Below are positions 3,588 through 13,935 of a DNA stretch of 17,609 nucleotides, in pieces. This DNA is from Candidatus Hermodarchaeota archaeon (GTDB lineage Archaea; Asgardarchaeota; Lokiarchaeia; Sigyniarchaeales; SOKP01): assembly GCA_048885525.1 (NCBI GenBank), contig JBHLLP010000058.1, positions 1 through 17,609 on the forward strand. Direction: 5' to 3'. The translations under genes and the position numbers were made by a program. The notes under the pieces are model-generated. The model did not search any database, had not been told where the DNA came from, and saw only the letters and a list, made by a program, of their open reading frames with translations. Each line of letters opens with the position of its first letter. Position 1 is the first letter of the stretch.

Positions 3588-3848
3588 ATGGAAAGAAGAT
3601 CTAATAGACCTATTGATTATTTAAAATCCTCTATTAATGAAATAATTCTCATTAAAGTTAAACGTAACCGATTGTTCAGAGGCCGTTTAGGCGGGTTTGA
3701 TGAGCACTTAAACCTATATCTTGAAGAGACTAGTCAGATTTTCGAGTATCAAGATGATGAAGGTAATATTCGGGAAGAGCATGAAAATCTAGGAAGTATC
3801 GTTGTACGTGGAGACAATGTAATATTCGTCAATCTAGCTCATTTATAG
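3588..3848 (+). CDS. Sm/Lsm RNA-binding protein (SmAP), Lsm3-like
   Basis: Sm1 motif RPIDYL...FRGRLGGFDEHLNLYL and Sm2 motif GSIVVRGDNVIFV. Confidence 0.95.
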   Translation: MERRSNRPIDYLKSSINEIILIKVKRNRLFRGRLGGFDEHLNLYLEETSQIFEYQDDEGNIREEHENLGSIVVRGDNVIFVNLAHL

Positions 3849-7751: not shown

Positions 7752-7910
7752 ATGAGGGAAGTAACGATTTGCCCCGCTTGTGGTTTTAGCTTTCACTTAG
7801 AGGTTAAAACAAAAAAAAGACAGATTAAATGCCCTATGTGTGGTTACAAATTTAGTGATCCAACTTTTATACCACAGAGTAAAAAGGAATTTGATAACAA
7901 ATATATATAA
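7752..7910 (+). CDS. 52-aa CPxCG zinc-ribbon microprotein
   Basis: Not in the ORF track. Translation: MREVTICPACGFSFHLEVKTKKRQIKCPMCGYKFSDPTFIPQSKKEFDNKYI*. Two CPxCG knuckles; ATG is 13 nt after the gck stop. Confidence 0.85.
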   Translation: MREVTICPACGFSFHLEVKTKKRQIKCPMCGYKFSDPTFIPQSKKEFDNKYI

Positions 7911-8063: not shown

Positions 8064-10253
8064 ATGGTAAAAAAAGATAAGAAAAAGAAAGAAACGAGAC
8101 CAACGGCACGAATGGGCTGGGATGCAGGTGAAGCTGAAGAAGAAATTGTTGCTGAGGCATTAAAAAGAAAGGACATGGACACAGGGCGAGTTGAATTAAT
8201 GGATAGAGATACCTCAACACCAGTTATCGAAACTTATGATGAAGACACTGGAAAACTTGAAGGTAGTATAGTTTTAAAAGACCGTAATCGGGAAGGATTA
8301 CTAGCATTAGTTAAAATAATTGAAGAAGTAGATGTAGAACAAGATCATGATGCCAATATTAAATCATTTACTCATAGTGGAAAACTCAATATCGAAAATC
8401 CTAGTAAAGTTGATAGATTATGGGATATTGATATTTCACTTGAAAATATAGGAAGTACAGATTTGAAATCGAAGGATATTTCAATACAAGAATTAGGTAC
8501 TGAAGAACCAGATAATGTTGACTCAAGAACATTTAAAATAACAAAGGATATAAAAAATCTATTCCTTGTCAAAGAATTCATTAATACAAATCCGAATGCT
8601 GATGATGTTTTAAATATAAATGATATTGAAAAAGAGATAATAAAACTAAAAGATAAAAAAAGTGGTGCTTCACCAAAACCCTCTAAACCCTCTAAAAAAG
8701 AACCTGAGGTTGAAAAAGAAGAAGAGAAAGAAGAAGAAAAAGAAGAAGAAAAAGAAGAAGAAGAAGAAATTAAAGGTGAAACTTGGGGTGACGGAGGGAC
8801 TCTTGTTGAAACTGGTTTGGAGTCTTTCGGAATTTCTATTGATAGAGATAATGTTGTCCACTTTGCTATTGCTCTTAGAAGTCTGTTTGATAAACCAGTT
8901 TCCAACATTAAAGTAATAAAAAATATTCCAGATGATTTCACAAATCCGAGGATTCTAGATACTACTGAAGGAAGAGCTAATATTGAAGGAAATAAAATAA
9001 TCTGGACAATTGAAAGATTAGCTCCAGAGTATACTGTGATGTTAAAATTCACATGTAACATTATGGTTAGCGATATCATTAAAAGACGAACTGGAACTGT
9101 TGATGTTTCATATCAGAGTGCTTCCTCTTTTGCTGAAGGTTTAGATATTGGTAAATTTGATGCGTATACAAGAAATAAATTCTATGTAGACACAATTGAA
9201 AGAGATGAGCAACCAGGCATATTCGATTGTAAGCTTGTATTTGATAATTCCTCAGAGTTTATTATTCAATTATTCAATGCAGACGTTTATTCTCCAGAAG
9301 ATAAATCAAAGAAGTTTGTAGATATTGATCCAAACGATGTTCCATTATTACCAAGTGGCGCTCAATGGCATTCAACGAAATGGGAGTTTGAGAGTGAGGA
9401 TTATCCTACTTTTAGGAAAAAATTAGAATTTAGAGTAATGCCTGATTTTCAAACAATTGTTAACGGAACAGTAAGCCTTTCAGATGTTATTTTAGAAATT
9501 GGTAGTATCACTGGTGTAATGTCCTATGATATAACAGAGGTTCCTACCTATCGAGCAAAGGATGTGATGGCTACACTGAAAGTAGTTAATAATGGTTCAG
9601 CTCCTTTAAATGAGGTAACAGTTATACATCAAACGTTCTCAACAGAATATCAACCACCAAAAGCTGATGAGATCAAGTTAATTTGGGATGGAGAAGAAGT
9701 TGAAGTAGCAGCTGCTGCTGTAAGTGTTGATAATAATGAATTTAAAATAGATCTTAATGATTTAAAAGATAGTAGTAGTGGTATGTTTAAACCAGAATCA
9801 ACAATGGAATTTCAATATCCAATCCATTCTATAAATCCTGCACGTGAATCCACCTTTAAATCTGAAATTACATATCTCGCTAATACTTTTCCAATAAGTC
9901 AGGAATTGGAGTTTAAACCGGAGGTTCCTATAATTGAGGCAATGCATATTAGAAGAAAGTTCCGCATTGGAAAAGAGGTGGTCCCAATTGGAGATCTGGG
10001 AAATTACAGAATTATATTAACGCTTGAAAATATTGGCGAATCTCCATTAAGAAAACTGATCATGCTCGATAAAGTTCCAGATTCATTTGAATATGGAACT
10101 TATTCTATGACTCCAGAAATTACGGACGAAGTAGGTCAAGATACGTTAAAATGGGACATTGATCTCTTGGAAGTAGGGGATAGTTTAGAAATTACTTATG
10201 AGATAACTGGTACAGGCAAATATAGTCCATCTGATGCCCAATTGGCGCTCTAA
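8064..10253 (+). CDS. Mu-homology-domain (AP medium subunit/delta-COP C-terminal-like) protein with additional Ig-like/DUF11-like beta-sandwiches
   Basis: 729 aa, no signal peptide or TM segment visible. Residues ~80-368 match AP-1 mu blocks in collinear order by eye (see findings). The C-terminal half has repeated 'L-x-[VL]-x-N-x-G-x-x-P-L' Ig/DUF11-type strands. Confidence 0.7.
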   Translation: MVKKDKKKKETRPTARMGWDAGEAEEEIVAEALKRKDMDTGRVELMDRDTSTPVIETYDEDTGKLEGSIVLKDRNREGLLALVKIIEEVDVEQDHDANIKSFTHSGKLNIENPSKVDRLWDIDISLENIGSTDLKSKDISIQELGTEEPDNVDSRTFKITKDIKNLFLVKEFINTNPNADDVLNINDIEKEIIKLKDKKSGASPKPSKPSKKEPEVEKEEEKEEEKEEEKEEEEEIKGETWGDGGTLVETGLESFGISIDRDNVVHFAIALRSLFDKPVSNIKVIKNIPDDFTNPRILDTTEGRANIEGNKIIWTIERLAPEYTVMLKFTCNIMVSDIIKRRTGTVDVSYQSASSFAEGLDIGKFDAYTRNKFYVDTIERDEQPGIFDCKLVFDNSSEFIIQLFNADVYSPEDKSKKFVDIDPNDVPLLPSGAQWHSTKWEFESEDYPTFRKKLEFRVMPDFQTIVNGTVSLSDVILEIGSITGVMSYDITEVPTYRAKDVMATLKVVNNGSAPLNEVTVIHQTFSTEYQPPKADEIKLIWDGEEVEVAAAAVSVDNNEFKIDLNDLKDSSSGMFKPESTMEFQYPIHSINPARESTFKSEITYLANTFPISQELEFKPEVPIIEAMHIRRKFRIGKEVVPIGDLGNYRIILTLENIGESPLRKLIMLDKVPDSFEYGTYSMTPEITDEVGQDTLKWDIDLLEVGDSLEITYEITGTGKYSPSDAQLAL
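8712..8768 (+). repeat. In-frame 12-nt tandem repeat (AAAGAAGAAGAR)x4 encoding (KEEE)n; purine-only tract
   Basis: gaa aaa gaa gaa gag aaa gaa gaa gaa aaa gaa gaa gaa aaa gaa gaa gaa gaa gaa. It is preceded by a 9-nt duplication aaaccctct x2 (KPS-KPS). Confidence 0.9.
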
Positions 10254-10265
10254 GATAAAATAAAA

Positions 10266-10296
10266 ATTTTTTATTTTTTTATTTTTTTTTTTATTT
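10266..10296 (+). terminator. Oligo-T terminator-like tract after the MHD gene
   Basis: Several T runs (6-11 nt) starting about 13 nt after the stop at 10253, typical of archaeal intrinsic terminators. Confidence 0.55.
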
Positions 10297-10401
10297 ACAA
10301 TAATAGTTTAATAAACGTAAGGATAAGTATTAAATGAATAAAGAATGAAATATAATTTAATTACAATTAATTTCTTTAATCATAAATAGCTCAAAGAAAA
10401 C

Positions 10402-12072
10402 ATGATAAGAAAACGTTATCAGTTAAATTGGATGTTTGAATGCCCAGATGCGGTGTTAACATGTTCTATTCTTAAATGTAAGGATAAAAATTTTCTTGTA
10501 TTTGGTGGTCATGATAAAACTCTTTATCTAATGGATGAAGAAAAAAACATACTTGATGAGCGAGCTTTTGATGGATGGTGCCGCTGCACTTATCCAATTG
10601 ATTTAGATGGAGATGGATGTGATGAGATATTAGTAGGAGCAGGTGATGGAAATTTTATGGTTATGAAATTAAATGTAGAAAAAAATAAGCTGGCCGGACT
10701 AATGCGATATAAGTCTTCCAAGCGGATAAATTGTTGTATCGCAGGAGATTTTACTCAAGATGGCAACATTGAAATAATTTTTGGCAGTGAAGATAAAACG
10801 CTTAAAATTTTCGATGATATTAAAGCTAAAGAGCCAAAATATATATTTTATTATGATTCGTGGGTTACAGCTTGTTCATTAGGTTTTATAAAATTACCCG
10901 ATCTTGAAGAGCCAGTTTATGCATTATTAGTTGGAACTAAAGGTGGTTTGGTTCAATTAATTCAATTTAAAGAGAATACGCCAGATATTACTTGGCAATA
11001 CAATTTTAATACTCAGATTAATGACATTAAAATTGGAGATGTAATTAACGATGGATTTAATGAGATCATATTAATTACTGATGACTCATATATTAAAATA
11101 CTAAATAGTACAGGAGAGATTATAAAAGAGATTGTTATTGAGGACGGACGTCCAGTTTCACTGTTAATTGAAGATATAGATGGTGATAATGCAAAGGAAA
11201 TTGTAGCAGGATGTGCTGATGGGTCTTTAAAGATTTATCATAATCAATCTTTAAATTCTCAAGATTTTGAGTTAAAATGGAAAACTAAAGTGGCATCATC
11301 TATCAAAAATATATGTTACATTTCAGGAGATGGACAGAAATTAAACCAAATTGTATTTGGAGGGTATGATCGTAGAATTAGAAACGTGACTGATTTTGAA
11401 TGGGGCCAAAAACAAGTTCTTGAGATCCCTCAAAAAATTCAAATCCCTGAAGTTCCAACAAAAAGAAAAGAAGATCTTATTGAGCAAATCGCTCAAATAA
11501 AAGATATTCCAACGAATATTAGAGAATATATATATAATAGTTTGCAAGAAAAGGGACATCTAAAGAATTTAATGAATGAATTATTAGAATTAGGCTACTC
11601 AGAGGATGAAATATTAGAAGAATTCACACTTCTAAAAACGCAAAAATCAGTTGCTTATGAAAAATTTTCTTATTCAGTTTGGAGTCTACCAGAGGAAGAA
11701 CTTCAAAAAGAAATGCCTGAGGAAGCTAAAGCTGAAATTTTAATTGAGGAACAAACGCAACCTAAAGTTCAACCTTTAGTTATTGAAAAACCAGTAGAAC
11801 CTATAAAAGAAAAATTAAGAGCTGCACTAGAGAGTGAACCTGAAAAGCCTATTTCCAAAGAACCAGTAAGCGCTGGGGCTTCATTAGAAGAAATAATTAT
11901 GGCGTATTTAAAGGAAGAAGGAGTTGTAGAAACTAAAGCTAAATTTATTGAGGATATCAAAGAAAAAGGATTCTCTAATACACAAATTGAAAAAGAAATT
12001 GCTATTTTAAAGGGTCAAGGAAAAATTCAGTATTCTCGCTCTAAACCTAAAGGTTGGAGTATAGTTGAATAA
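10402..12072 (+). CDS. FG-GAP/DxDxDG-type beta-propeller protein with acidic linker and two C-terminal winged-helix-like domains
   Basis: Blades DLDGDGCDEILVG, DFTQDGNIEIIFG, DVINDGFNEIILI and DIDGDNAKEIVAG, plus WD-like GGHDKTL, GSEDKTLKIF, GCADGSLKIY and GGYDRRIR. No signal peptide. A ~60-aa helical/wing unit is duplicated at the C-terminus. Confidence 0.8.
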   Translation: MIRKRYQLNWMFECPDAVLTCSILKCKDKNFLVFGGHDKTLYLMDEEKNILDERAFDGWCRCTYPIDLDGDGCDEILVGAGDGNFMVMKLNVEKNKLAGLMRYKSSKRINCCIAGDFTQDGNIEIIFGSEDKTLKIFDDIKAKEPKYIFYYDSWVTACSLGFIKLPDLEEPVYALLVGTKGGLVQLIQFKENTPDITWQYNFNTQINDIKIGDVINDGFNEIILITDDSYIKILNSTGEIIKEIVIEDGRPVSLLIEDIDGDNAKEIVAGCADGSLKIYHNQSLNSQDFELKWKTKVASSIKNICYISGDGQKLNQIVFGGYDRRIRNVTDFEWGQKQVLEIPQKIQIPEVPTKRKEDLIEQIAQIKDIPTNIREYIYNSLQEKGHLKNLMNELLELGYSEDEILEEFTLLKTQKSVAYEKFSYSVWSLPEEELQKEMPEEAKAEILIEEQTQPKVQPLVIEKPVEPIKEKLRAALESEPEKPISKEPVSAGASLEEIIMAYLKEEGVVETKAKFIEDIKEKGFSNTQIEKEIAILKGQGKIQYSRSKPKGWSIVE

Positions 12073-12534
12073 CTATTCTTGAGTTTTTTTTATAAAAAAT
12101 TCTTGTATCTTCTCTTGAAAAGGCTCAAATTGATTTAATTGGGTGAAATCGGCTCCATTGAATTTTTGAATAAACAATTGTAATACTGGATTAACTCTCT
12201 CGAAAAATTTCCGAACAAGTCTATCAGATTTCTTTTTTGATTTATCGAGTAATCCATACAAAATTATTGGTTCTTTATAACGATTATCTTCCGATTGAAC
12301 TTCAGATAATTTAAAGATAAAAAGGATATTTCCTGATTCTAAATACTCTAAAGAACTTTTATTAAACGCAGTATTTACGAAAGTATTGATGGCAGAAATA
12401 AATGCCCCTCTTAGATCTTTATTTATACCACGTTCTTTTTGAATTGGCAATTCTTTAAAGATATGATTTACAAGTACAAATCCTCGGAAAACAAAGCCAA
12501 TTTCATATAGTTCCTTCAACATAGAGCTAAACAA
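12073..12534 (-). CDS. Longin-fold protein (Asgard longin; sigma/mu-N/TRAPP-like)
   Basis: Beta-beta-alpha-beta-beta-beta-alpha-alpha pattern: LYEIGFVFRGFVLVNHIF / DLRGAFISAINTFV / LEYLESGNILFIF / IILYGLLD / helices ending FEPFQEKIQEFF. The likely true start is the ATG at 12522. Confidence 0.72.
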   Translation of the reverse strand: MFSSMLKELYEIGFVFRGFVLVNHIFKELPIQKERGINKDLRGAFISAINTFVNTAFNKSSLEYLESGNILFIFKLSEVQSEDNRYKEPIILYGLLDKSKKKSDRLVRKFFERVNPVLQLFIQKFNGADFTQLNQFEPFQEKIQEFFIKKTQE

Positions 12535-12645: not shown

Positions 12646-13171
12646 TTGATAACTGTGTTAAAAAATATTGATAAAAGATTTGATGAAAAAATTAAAGAAT
12701 TAAAGGCTTCATTACCTAATCTAAAGGTAGGCGTAAATTGTGCTGAGTTAACATTGACAAGCGTGCTAGATGTTCTAGAGATTGATAATTAGATATTTCA
12801 TAATACCACAATTCCATTAGCAGGAGGCTTTGGTGGATATAAGTCTAGAAATGGATGACAAGGAGCCTGCGGTGCTGTGGGTGGAGGATGTTCAGCATTA
12901 GGAGTTATAACGGGAGGGCATGAAAGAATGCATAATGAAACCATGTTGAAGACATATTTAAAAGCAGCAAAGTTTTCTCATGAGTTTGAAAAGGAATTAG
13001 GCTCTGTGATTTGTTTAGAACTCTGTGGTTATGATTTCAGTTAATCTGAAGCTATGGAAGAATATCAAAAAAGTGGAATATGAACAAAAAAATGTTATTA
13101 TTGATGTACTATGGTCTGTAGATAAAATAAGAAGAATGACTGATGAAGATTTAAAAAATAAATGGGAATAA
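12646..13171 (+). pseudogene. Pseudogene of C_GCAxxG_C_C family putative redox protein
   Basis: The frame from 12646/12655 reads ...GVNCAELTL...DN*IFHN...PLAGGFGGYKSRNG*QGACGAVGGGCSALG...FEKELGSVICLELCGYDFS*SEAMEEYQKSGI*TKKCYY. It then frameshifts near 13100 into VLWSVDKIRRMTDEDLKNKWE*. Internal stops: TAG 12790, TGA 12856, TAA 13042, TGA 13081. Confidence 0.85.
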
Positions 13172-13302: not shown

Positions 13303-13548
13303 ATGAGTGGAGAAGAAGAAAGTCGTTTTTGCCCGTATTGTGGGGTTGAGTTACAACACCCCTATTGGCAACATATTCAAAAAGAACATCCGGATAAATA
13401 TACTCAAAAAGAGACTTGGATAAAATTATATCAAGATTATACAGGTTTAGGTATGGATGAGGCAACTTCCTTAATGGTTATATCAGAATTATTTAATGCT
13501 ACTCAAGATGAAATTAAATCTTTCTTAAAAAATGCTAATGTTTTATAA
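13303..13548 (+). CDS. Small C2H2-type zinc-finger protein with helical C-terminus
   Basis: CPYC-x10-H-x4-H (CPYCGVELQHPYWQHIQKEH) followed by predicted helices (ISELFNATQDEIKSFLK). Confidence 0.75.
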   Translation: MSGEEESRFCPYCGVELQHPYWQHIQKEHPDKYTQKETWIKLYQDYTGLGMDEATSLMVISELFNATQDEIKSFLKNANVL

Positions 13549-13626: not shown

Positions 13627-13935
13627 TTAAAACTCTTCTTCTTCCTCACTTTCTTTTAAAAGTCCTGCTTGTTTTAACAAATCCTCTACACTATCTCGAG
13701 CTTTAATTACTTGTTCATTTTCACTTAAATTTAATTTTTCAATTACATCATCGCTAAATTCCATAAATTTTTCAATTGCATCAGAACTGAATTCTTTTAT
13801 TTTTTCAGAAGTTTCTTCTATAAAATCTTTTCCAGATTCACCAAAAACACTTCCAACGAAATCACTAAATTGTTTATTCAATTTTTCTATGAAATTTTCT
13901 TTTTCTTCTCCTTCTTCACTCATTTTCGTATACAC
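13627..13935 (-). CDS. Acidic, all-helical hypothetical protein
   Basis: 102-aa ORF; ATG at 13923 is the probable start. E/K/F-rich amphipathic helices; no recognisable family. Confidence 0.7.
   Translation of the reverse strand: MYTKMSEEGEEKENFIEKLNKQFSDFVGSVFGESGKDFIEETSEKIKEFSSDAIEKFMEFSDDVIEKLNLSENEQVIKARDSVEDLLKQAGLLKESEEEEEF

Follow-up and report, generated by a model that had tools for sequence, protein, structure and literature searches.

The window considered here, i.e., the whole stretch of DNA that was analyzed, is an entire contig of 17.6 kb (JBHLLP010000058.1, C58 in our numbering) from an Asgard genome of 3.58 Mb that is 99% complete. Its GC content is about 30%, and close homologues of its proteins carry the labels Promethearchaeota or Lokiarchaeota. 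The locus of interest encodes three predicted cytosolic proteins with eukaryote-like trafficking folds (Table 1): P1, a mu-homology domain (MHD) protein, P2, a propeller protein of the ITFG2/BBS type, and P3, a longin. The parts have already appeared in the literature as candidate Asgard "eukaryotic signature" proteins. P1, P2 and P3 are genuine conserved genes, and each has homologues in the hundreds on independent contigs. P1 and P2 may constitute a functional cassette, next to which P3 would be part of the genomic backbone.

The original prediction, made from the letters of the DNA, had proposed three contiguous genes for proteins free of signal peptides: an MHD-like protein with immunoglobulin (Ig)-like domains, a beta-propeller with DxDxDG loops and a longin. 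The open reading frames (ORFs) and translations confirm the gene calls, and each of the three fold assignments stood. No signal peptide or transmembrane segment was found in P1, P2 or P3, with a top Kyte-Doolittle mean over 19 residues of ≤1.24, and a cytosolic location is supported by these sequence features. The P3 ORF extends to a TTG at 12534 (153 aa). Its start is most likely the ATG at 12522 rather than this TTG because the database twin and the orthologues begin there. In one database record, P2 begins at M11; its first 10 residues are nevertheless conserved among orthologues, which makes the start at 10402 plausible. The stop codons of P2 and P3 abut at 12072/12073, on opposite strands. 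The T-rich tract behind P1 is likely an archaeal terminator, and P2 probably has its own promoter. The caveats attached to the original prediction hold as well: P3 lies on the opposite strand, a T-tract separates P1 from P2, and the Pfam scan of the window ORFs revealed neither an alpha-solenoid (HEAT/ARM) nor a small GTPase. Likewise, no longin-Arf GTPase was found in the window.

The AlphaFold2 (AF2) model of P1, built on the family alignment, is all-beta, with a predicted local distance difference test score (pLDDT) of 88 and a predicted template modeling score (pTM) of 0.75, and has the two-subdomain all-beta fold of an MHD. According to this model, the MHD is built from residues 77-197 and 256-476 and is interrupted by an acidic disordered loop. 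Homology of the first of these stretches extends to distant Asgard relatives in which the insert is missing. In the second, the family profile aligns to residues ~303-403 of AP-2 mu, and the range aligned in the VIA structure search ends at 473-476. The insertion comprises 58 residues, with a pLDDT <50 at 204-219 and 237-247, and is missing from sister-family and distant homologues. Acidic residues make up 20% of P1, which contains a poly-Glu loop. Residues 1-76 are modeled as one helix and a few short strands, and no longin domain is present within P1 in the AF2 model. The DUF11 match on the Ig-like tail domain is also seen in P1 orthologues.

The profile of the P1 family, compared with all PDB sequences, gave 21 matches at E <1, of which 20 are AP mu subunits and the last is a gamma-adaptin ear. 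All of these matches have marginal E-values (0.045 and above), and the one to the ear, at E 0.37, is a lead only. A plain sequence search of the PDB with P1 returned nothing. The MHD match surfaced only in the exhaustive VIA search, where the best structural matches of residues 77-476 are cytosolic MHDs. With Pfam, DUF11 alone was found on P1 itself. Within the P1 family, PF00928 (Adap_comp_sub) matches 30 of 71 diverse members (E ≤0.01, best 1.9e-10), always at the equivalent of P1 residues ~250-365 and at profile positions ~123-240, which correspond to MHD subdomain B. The scores are mostly under the gathering cut-off of 31.6 bits; those above it are 47.4 (a sister-family orthologue), 39.7 and 34.9 bits. 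For the Asgard "mu C-terminal domain" candidates, a complete MHD is thereby predicted, with high confidence.

P2 contains the DxDxDG-type loops DLDGDG (67-72) and DIDGDN (258-263), and four Pfam propeller models score above their cut-offs: PF23743 Beta-prop_BBS7 (71 bits, 1.4e-19, cut-off 27), FG-GAP_3 (42.1 bits, cut-off 26.9), BBS2_Mid (37.1 bits, cut-off 27) and Itfg2 (34.1 bits, cut-off 27). The profile of the P2 family (A3) recovered ITFG2 (2.4e-13), BBS7 (4e-5) and BBS2 (9e-5) among PDB sequences. By these sequence models, P2 is predicted to be an FG-GAP-type seven-bladed propeller of the ITFG2/BBS2/BBS7 family. Its tail (346-556) gave weak matches of the winged-helix type only, e.g., MCM5_C at 0.004, and an Atlas feature search with the tail yielded no usable match. 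The tail ends in a conserved YS(K/R)S-P(K/R)G(W/Y)S motif, which is present in sister-family orthologues too. P2 is described here as an FG-GAP propeller with a tail whose winged-helix-like fold is predicted.

Sandwiches and propellers of this kind also raise the idea of P1 and P2 as adhesion-type proteins of the cell surface, with an integrin-like propeller and pilin/DUF11 sandwiches, that leave the cell by a non-classical route. In extracellular proteins, FG-GAP propellers, DUF11 domains and pilin-like sandwiches are a typical feature, and a whole-chain Foldseek search of the PDB with P1 retrieved multi-Ig proteins only (adhesins, integrin legs and alpha-2-macroglobulins), at a TM <0.2. We consider such a role very improbable: besides a signal peptide and a transmembrane segment, a C-terminal anchor is missing, the acidic composition and poly-Glu loop of P1 and the winged-helix-like tail of P2 speak against it, the MHD-containing part of P1 resembles cytosolic MHDs best and not adhesins, and the best sequence matches of P2 are the cytosolic ITFG2 and BBS proteins.

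As for P3, its AF2 model (pLDDT 81.5) follows the order beta-beta-alpha-beta-beta-beta-alpha-alpha and has the longin sandwich of ~120-140 residues. The top 30 rows of the VIA search are all longin domains, with Z values of 11.9 for CPLANE, 11.7 for VAMP7, 11.5 for synbindin, 11.3 for the AP-2 mu N-terminus, 11.1 for AP-3 sigma and 10.9 for Sec22. Foldseek and the ESM Atlas concur on a longin; in the Atlas, the clusters closest to P3 consist of further Asgard longins. P3 matched no Pfam longin family, and nothing meaningful was found among PDB sequences, with or without a profile. Since the scores of the AP mu/sigma, VAMP7, TRAPP, Sec22 and CPLANE longins are tied, all within one Z unit of each other, P3 is not assignable to any one longin subfamily; the model identifies it as a generic longin, not demonstrably of the sigma/mu type. 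The proposal that P3 represents the longin that later fused to an MHD was therefore not upheld.

The distribution of the three families was determined by searching each of them over the same 301 Asgard genomes (70 genera). The window belongs to a Lokiarchaeial family of 68 genomes, referred to as f1, whose sister family is f2. The P1 family has already been listed among the Asgard Adap_comp_sub eukaryotic signature protein (ESP) candidates (Eme et al. 2023; PMC10307638, Supplementary Table 3), and the Lokiarchaeales entries in that table have the N-terminus of P1 and its RLWDIDI and KIIWTI motifs in common. The same study described the MHD and the longin as unfused in Asgard archaea and, based on sequence profiles, called the distribution of Adap_comp_sub sparse (PMC10307638). 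In contrast, the family was found here in 242 of the 301 genomes (~80%) and in 63 of the 70 genera, its fold was modeled, and a linked propeller gene is described. Its conserved core spans residues ~250-729, and the first MHD half is detectable also in distant members. Full-length P2-type orthologues occur only in f1 and f2, with weaker propeller matches elsewhere. With the window protein as query, P3 was recovered from all 68 f1 genomes and from practically no genome among the 232 others sampled. NCBI names on proteins of 70-85% identity (Thor-, Odin-, Hermod-, Hod- and Heimdallarchaeota) conflict with this genome-based distribution and were not used to estimate breadth.

The gene order in f1 is GlyK (glycerate-kinase-like), zinc ribbon, P1, P2, P3 (reverse), orf13303 and orf13627 (reverse). 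By the coordinates from the three whole-genome searches, P1, P2 and P3 lie side by side in the genera g1, g4, g5, g7, g8 and g9 and in part of g6. In g2 and g3, GlyK is directly followed by P3, and in one g6 genome (G141) by the zinc ribbon and then P3; no P1 or P2 orthologue was found anywhere in the g2, g3 and G141 genomes by whole-genome searches. Allowing for contig ends, P1 and P2 are jointly present or jointly absent in 67 of the 68 f1 genomes. Because g6 has both states, the pair was gained or lost at least twice, and in the GlyK tree used for these events, 7 of the 11 inner branches are unresolved. A synteny of the trio across Loki-, Thor-, Odin- and Heimdallarchaeia, named as a check with the original prediction, was not found, as the adjacency is restricted to f1 and P3, with the window query, is hardly encountered beyond it.

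In f2, P1-like (30-38% identity) and P2-like (23-28% identity) genes are convergent neighbors among unrelated genes in three genomes (G162, G234 and G210). The pair is flanked by PPDK and an AIR-synthase-like gene in G162, and G234 has the same convergent pair; the P2-like genes of both share the P2 tail motif. The genes on either side in G210 are TFIIB and LysE. This pairing across two families in different contexts is the sole evidence for a functional link between P1 and P2. We put the probability that P1 and P2 are a functional two-gene Lokiarchaeales cassette, present or absent as a unit, at about 0.5. In this reading, P3 belongs to the syntenic backbone and is independent of the cassette, since it keeps its place where P1 and P2 are absent.

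Some side observations concern the variants of this pair. In f2 genus g11, a conserved acidic helical ORF of 98-106 aa without a Pfam match lies directly downstream of the P1-like gene, before the convergent P2-like gene. In g6, G279:C5 (L048, 5723-7037) carries, between P2 and P1, two additional incomplete copies of P1 segments, and G135:C25 (L049, 6158-9263), an intermediate between the two states of this genus, contains P2, a 46-residue P1 remnant and two tandem P3 copies.

Alternatively, the three genes could be unrelated neighbors that serve separate pathways and have stayed adjacent through slow genome rearrangement. The flanking genes (GlyK, zinc ribbon, orf13303 and orf13627) are conserved likewise, P1 and P2 probably have separate promoters, and paralogues of each gene are scattered. 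Nevertheless, the P1-like and P2-like genes adjoin again in f2, in a wholly different context and in inverted orientation, and the joint presence or absence within f1 is nearly complete. Mere neighborhood is for these reasons somewhat unlikely.

The cassette reading faces a number of opposing points, several of which speak for the preceding alternative. The whole region is syntenic in f1, so that the adjacency may be inertia, and one deletion removes neighboring genes regardless of their function. In G135 (g6), P2 is intact next to the P1 remnant, i.e., P2 persists without P1. The P1-like and P2-like genes of G210 are kept apart by a GH26-like gene. Moreover, P1 and P2 are probably separate transcripts in the window because a T-rich tract and an AT-rich spacer lie between them, and they are convergent in f2. 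The pan-Asgard P1 paralogues stand alone, and their only conserved neighbor in 22 loci is a metallo-beta-lactamase-fold gene, which points to no trafficking link. On P1 itself, PF00928 gave no match at E ≤0.1. Finally, among the mu2 tyrosine-motif pocket residues considered (Phe174, Asp176, Trp421 and Arg423), Asp176 lies opposite Lys84 of P1 in a low-confidence profile alignment of 2.4 bits. In the same alignment, the nearly invariant Glu87 of P1 pairs with mu2 Glu179. Because this weak alignment places Lys84 at Asp176, canonical YxxPhi recognition by P1 is doubtful, and P1, if it has a ligand, probably binds something other than a YxxPhi motif.

The lone P1 paralogues showed further features. 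The metallo-beta-lactamase-fold gene (Lactamase_B_3, up to 5e-23) precedes the stand-alone paralogue on the same strand in 10 of the 22 loci, in families f9, f21 and f10. In two distant relatives of P1 with ~20% identity (P0382 and P0372), a short N-terminal HEAT_2 module is fused to the MHD-like core (8.5e-15 and 2.5e-6). These fusions are a faint echo of adaptor solenoids and give no evidence on the window locus. Downstream of one distant relative of P1 lies a Ras/Roc gene; tblastn with this GTPase detected no other in the 22 distant-relative loci, nor in five loci upstream of GlyK in the window's genus. In the window genome (G000), the paralogues of P1 and P3 have only housekeeping neighbors.

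A larger assembly was also considered, in which P1, P2 and P3 join on membranes into a single proto-adaptor or coat complex and P3 is the still-separate longin half of a mu-like subunit. Longin and MHD co-occur in AP and COPI, propellers occur in coats and in the BBSome, and assemblies of longins with propellers exist (CPLANE, Mon1-Ccz1-RMC1) and are among the structural matches of P3. P3 also abuts P2 stop-to-stop in every cassette-bearing f1 genome. We nonetheless hold this complex to be improbable. In genomes without P1 and P2, both the location of P3 and its sequence (45-58% identity) are retained, P3 was not found with the window query in the f2 genomes that bear the P1-like/P2-like pair, and it has 2-8 paralogues per f1 genome in unrelated contexts. 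Furthermore, it is no closer to sigma/mu than to SNARE, TRAPP or SRX longins, and neither a solenoid subunit nor a GTPase is encoded among the window ORFs.

Returning to the P1-P2 cassette, a mechanism can be sketched by analogy. MHDs are platforms that bind peptide motifs and lipids, and ITFG2/BBS propellers are scaffolds within cytosolic complexes. The MHD and Ig-like domains of P1 would capture short linear motifs of clients via beta-strand augmentation, in the manner of the AP mu, delta-COP and muniscin MHDs. The propeller and tail of P2 would serve as a platform for further partners or for oligomerization, like ITFG2 in KICSTOR and BBS2/7 in the BBSome. Such a soluble adaptor-like scaffold, with motif capture by P1 and a platform provided by P2, is the most economical mechanism, yet a tentative idea and, on balance, unlikely. 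A complex prediction on whether P3 binds the MHD or the propeller (P1 1-480, P2 1-345, with P3 as the scored partner) gave an ipSAE of 0.00 in both runs, which counts neither for nor against. A bolder version, in which P1 and P2, possibly with P3 or another longin/GTPase in trans, are a membrane-associated Lokiarchaeales cargo-adaptor complex and the P1 family is the direct MHD ancestor, seems quite improbable. If true, this would be the first prokaryotic MHD-based adaptor, and the nearly pan-Asgard P1 family would be the ancestor of the AP, COPI, TSET and muniscin MHDs, the longin-MHD fusion being later.

Table 1 Coordinates of the genes, predicted domains and other features discussed in the text
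Feature	Position	Strand	Description
P1	8064..10253	+	729 aa; predicted mu-homology-domain protein with two C-terminal Ig-like sandwiches
MHD first part (subdomain A)	8292..8654	+	P1 residues 77-197; model range aligned to MHDs begins at 76-79
Insertion inside MHD	8655..8828	+	P1 residues 198-255; predicted disordered, Pro/Lys then poly-Glu
MHD subdomain B (also Pfam DUF11) and remainder of subdomain A	8829..9491	+	P1 residues 256-476
Pilin/cohesin-like beta-sandwich	9504..9953	+	P1 residues 481-630
DUF11 (CLIPPER) Ig-like domain	9960..10211	+	P1 residues 633-716; Pfam DUF11 on 641-715 of the excised tail
T-rich tract	10267..10296	+	After the P1 stop, then AT-rich spacer until P2; read from the sequence
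P2	10402..12072	+	556 aa; ITFG2/BBS2/BBS7-type FG-GAP beta-propeller (~1-340), Glu/Lys/Pro linker, predicted winged-helix-like tail
P3	12073..12522	-	149 aa from the ATG at 12522; stand-alone longin-fold protein, constant neighbor
Metallo-beta-lactamase-fold gene	L057:5801-6529	-	
Metallo-beta-lactamase-fold gene	L059:2939-3649	+	
Metallo-beta-lactamase-fold gene	L062:2845-3570	+	
Metallo-beta-lactamase-fold gene	L063:5979-6668	-	
Acidic helical ORF of g11	L046:7242-7538	-	
Acidic helical ORF of g11	L045:3632-3952	-	

The remaining genes of the window are metabolic or housekeeping genes: AOR, an S15 peptidase, an LSM protein, a metallophosphoesterase, GlyK, an amidohydrolase, a CoA-transferase and an ADP-forming acyl-CoA synthetase. 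The LSM (Sm-like) gene (3588-3848, plus strand, 9.6e-17) is also conserved in relatives, where it lies upstream of the metallophosphoesterase gene. Between GlyK and P1, at 7752-7910 on the plus strand, lies a 52-aa double-CPxCG zinc-ribbon microprotein that is conserved in relatives. It is also kept in G141, which is without P1 and P2, and therefore belongs to the syntenic backbone and not to the cassette. In g4, the ~500-aa gene adjoining GlyK is a dihydrolipoyl dehydrogenase, and g7 and g8 have an ORF of similar size and position. On the other side, three short ORFs in different frames (12646-13171, plus strand) resemble fragments of one gene, possibly a pseudogene with frameshifts or the result of an error in the assembly; the middle fragment matches a C_GCAxxG_C_C redox-protein family at 8e-5, under the cut-off. 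They are followed by orf13303 (13303-13548, plus strand), whose 81-aa product has a zinc-finger-like CxxC...HxxxxH motif at its N-terminus, and orf13627 (13627-13935, minus strand), which encodes a 102-aa acidic helical protein. Both adjoin P3 throughout f1, with 53-83% identity. DNA of the locus was matched in sediment metagenomes, and no RNA data set was among the sources listed.

With regard to the origin of the eukaryotic adaptor and coat machinery, the Asgard homologues reported so far are isolated, weakly scoring domains. To these, the locus adds predicted complete MHDs, a P1 family present in ~80% of the sampled Asgard genomes and one Lokiarchaeales branch in which this family is linked to an ITFG2/BBS-type propeller. 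It also provides a concrete hypothesis with two proteins, P1 and P2. Should the two bind each other, they would form a defined archaeal assembly made of adaptor-type parts. If they do not, adjacent eukaryote-like folds need not make a machine.

The suspicion, voiced with the original prediction, that the individual parts had been reported before proved right: besides the P1 family (Eme et al. 2023), an Asgard BBS7/ITFG2 cluster is included in an ESP catalogue (bioRxiv 10.64898/2026.10.28.762692). Our literature search found no description of the P1-P2 gene pair, and none on Asgard together with the mu homology domain or on Asgard together with BBSome and longin. Relative to the literature found, the confident model of a full MHD and the ~80% Asgard prevalence of the P1 family are new, as are the architecture of an MHD with two sandwiches and an acidic insert and the linkage to a propeller gene.

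Compared to known systems, P1 differs from AP mu and delta-COP in that it has no N-terminal longin; the sole longin is encoded by the separate P3 gene on the opposite strand. Unlike the MHDs of AP-1 to AP-4 mu, delta-COP and the muniscins (SGIP1, Syp1/FCHo), the predicted MHD of P1 contains a 58-residue acidic insertion and is followed by two extra Ig-like sandwiches, and P1 itself is under Pfam detection. According to the low-confidence alignment, the tyrosine-motif pocket of AP mu is probably not conserved. In contrast to the AP/COPI/TSET heterotetramer, the window locus has no large alpha-solenoid subunits or adaptin partners nearby, and the longin P3 is independent of P1. P3 shares its fold with the known longins (sigma/mu adaptins, zeta/delta-COP, VAMP7/Sec22/Ykt6, TRAPPC2/4, SRX and Fuzzy/Mon1) without matching a Pfam longin family and, unlike them, is confined by sequence to one archaeal family. 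Neither KPTN nor SZT2 nor any other BBSome-like partner was identified for P2. P2 has propeller Pfam models and PDB profile matches in common with ITFG2 of KICSTOR and BBS2/BBS7 of the BBSome; where BBS2/7 continue after the propeller with coiled-coil, GAE and platform domains, P2 is predicted to carry winged-helix-like modules.

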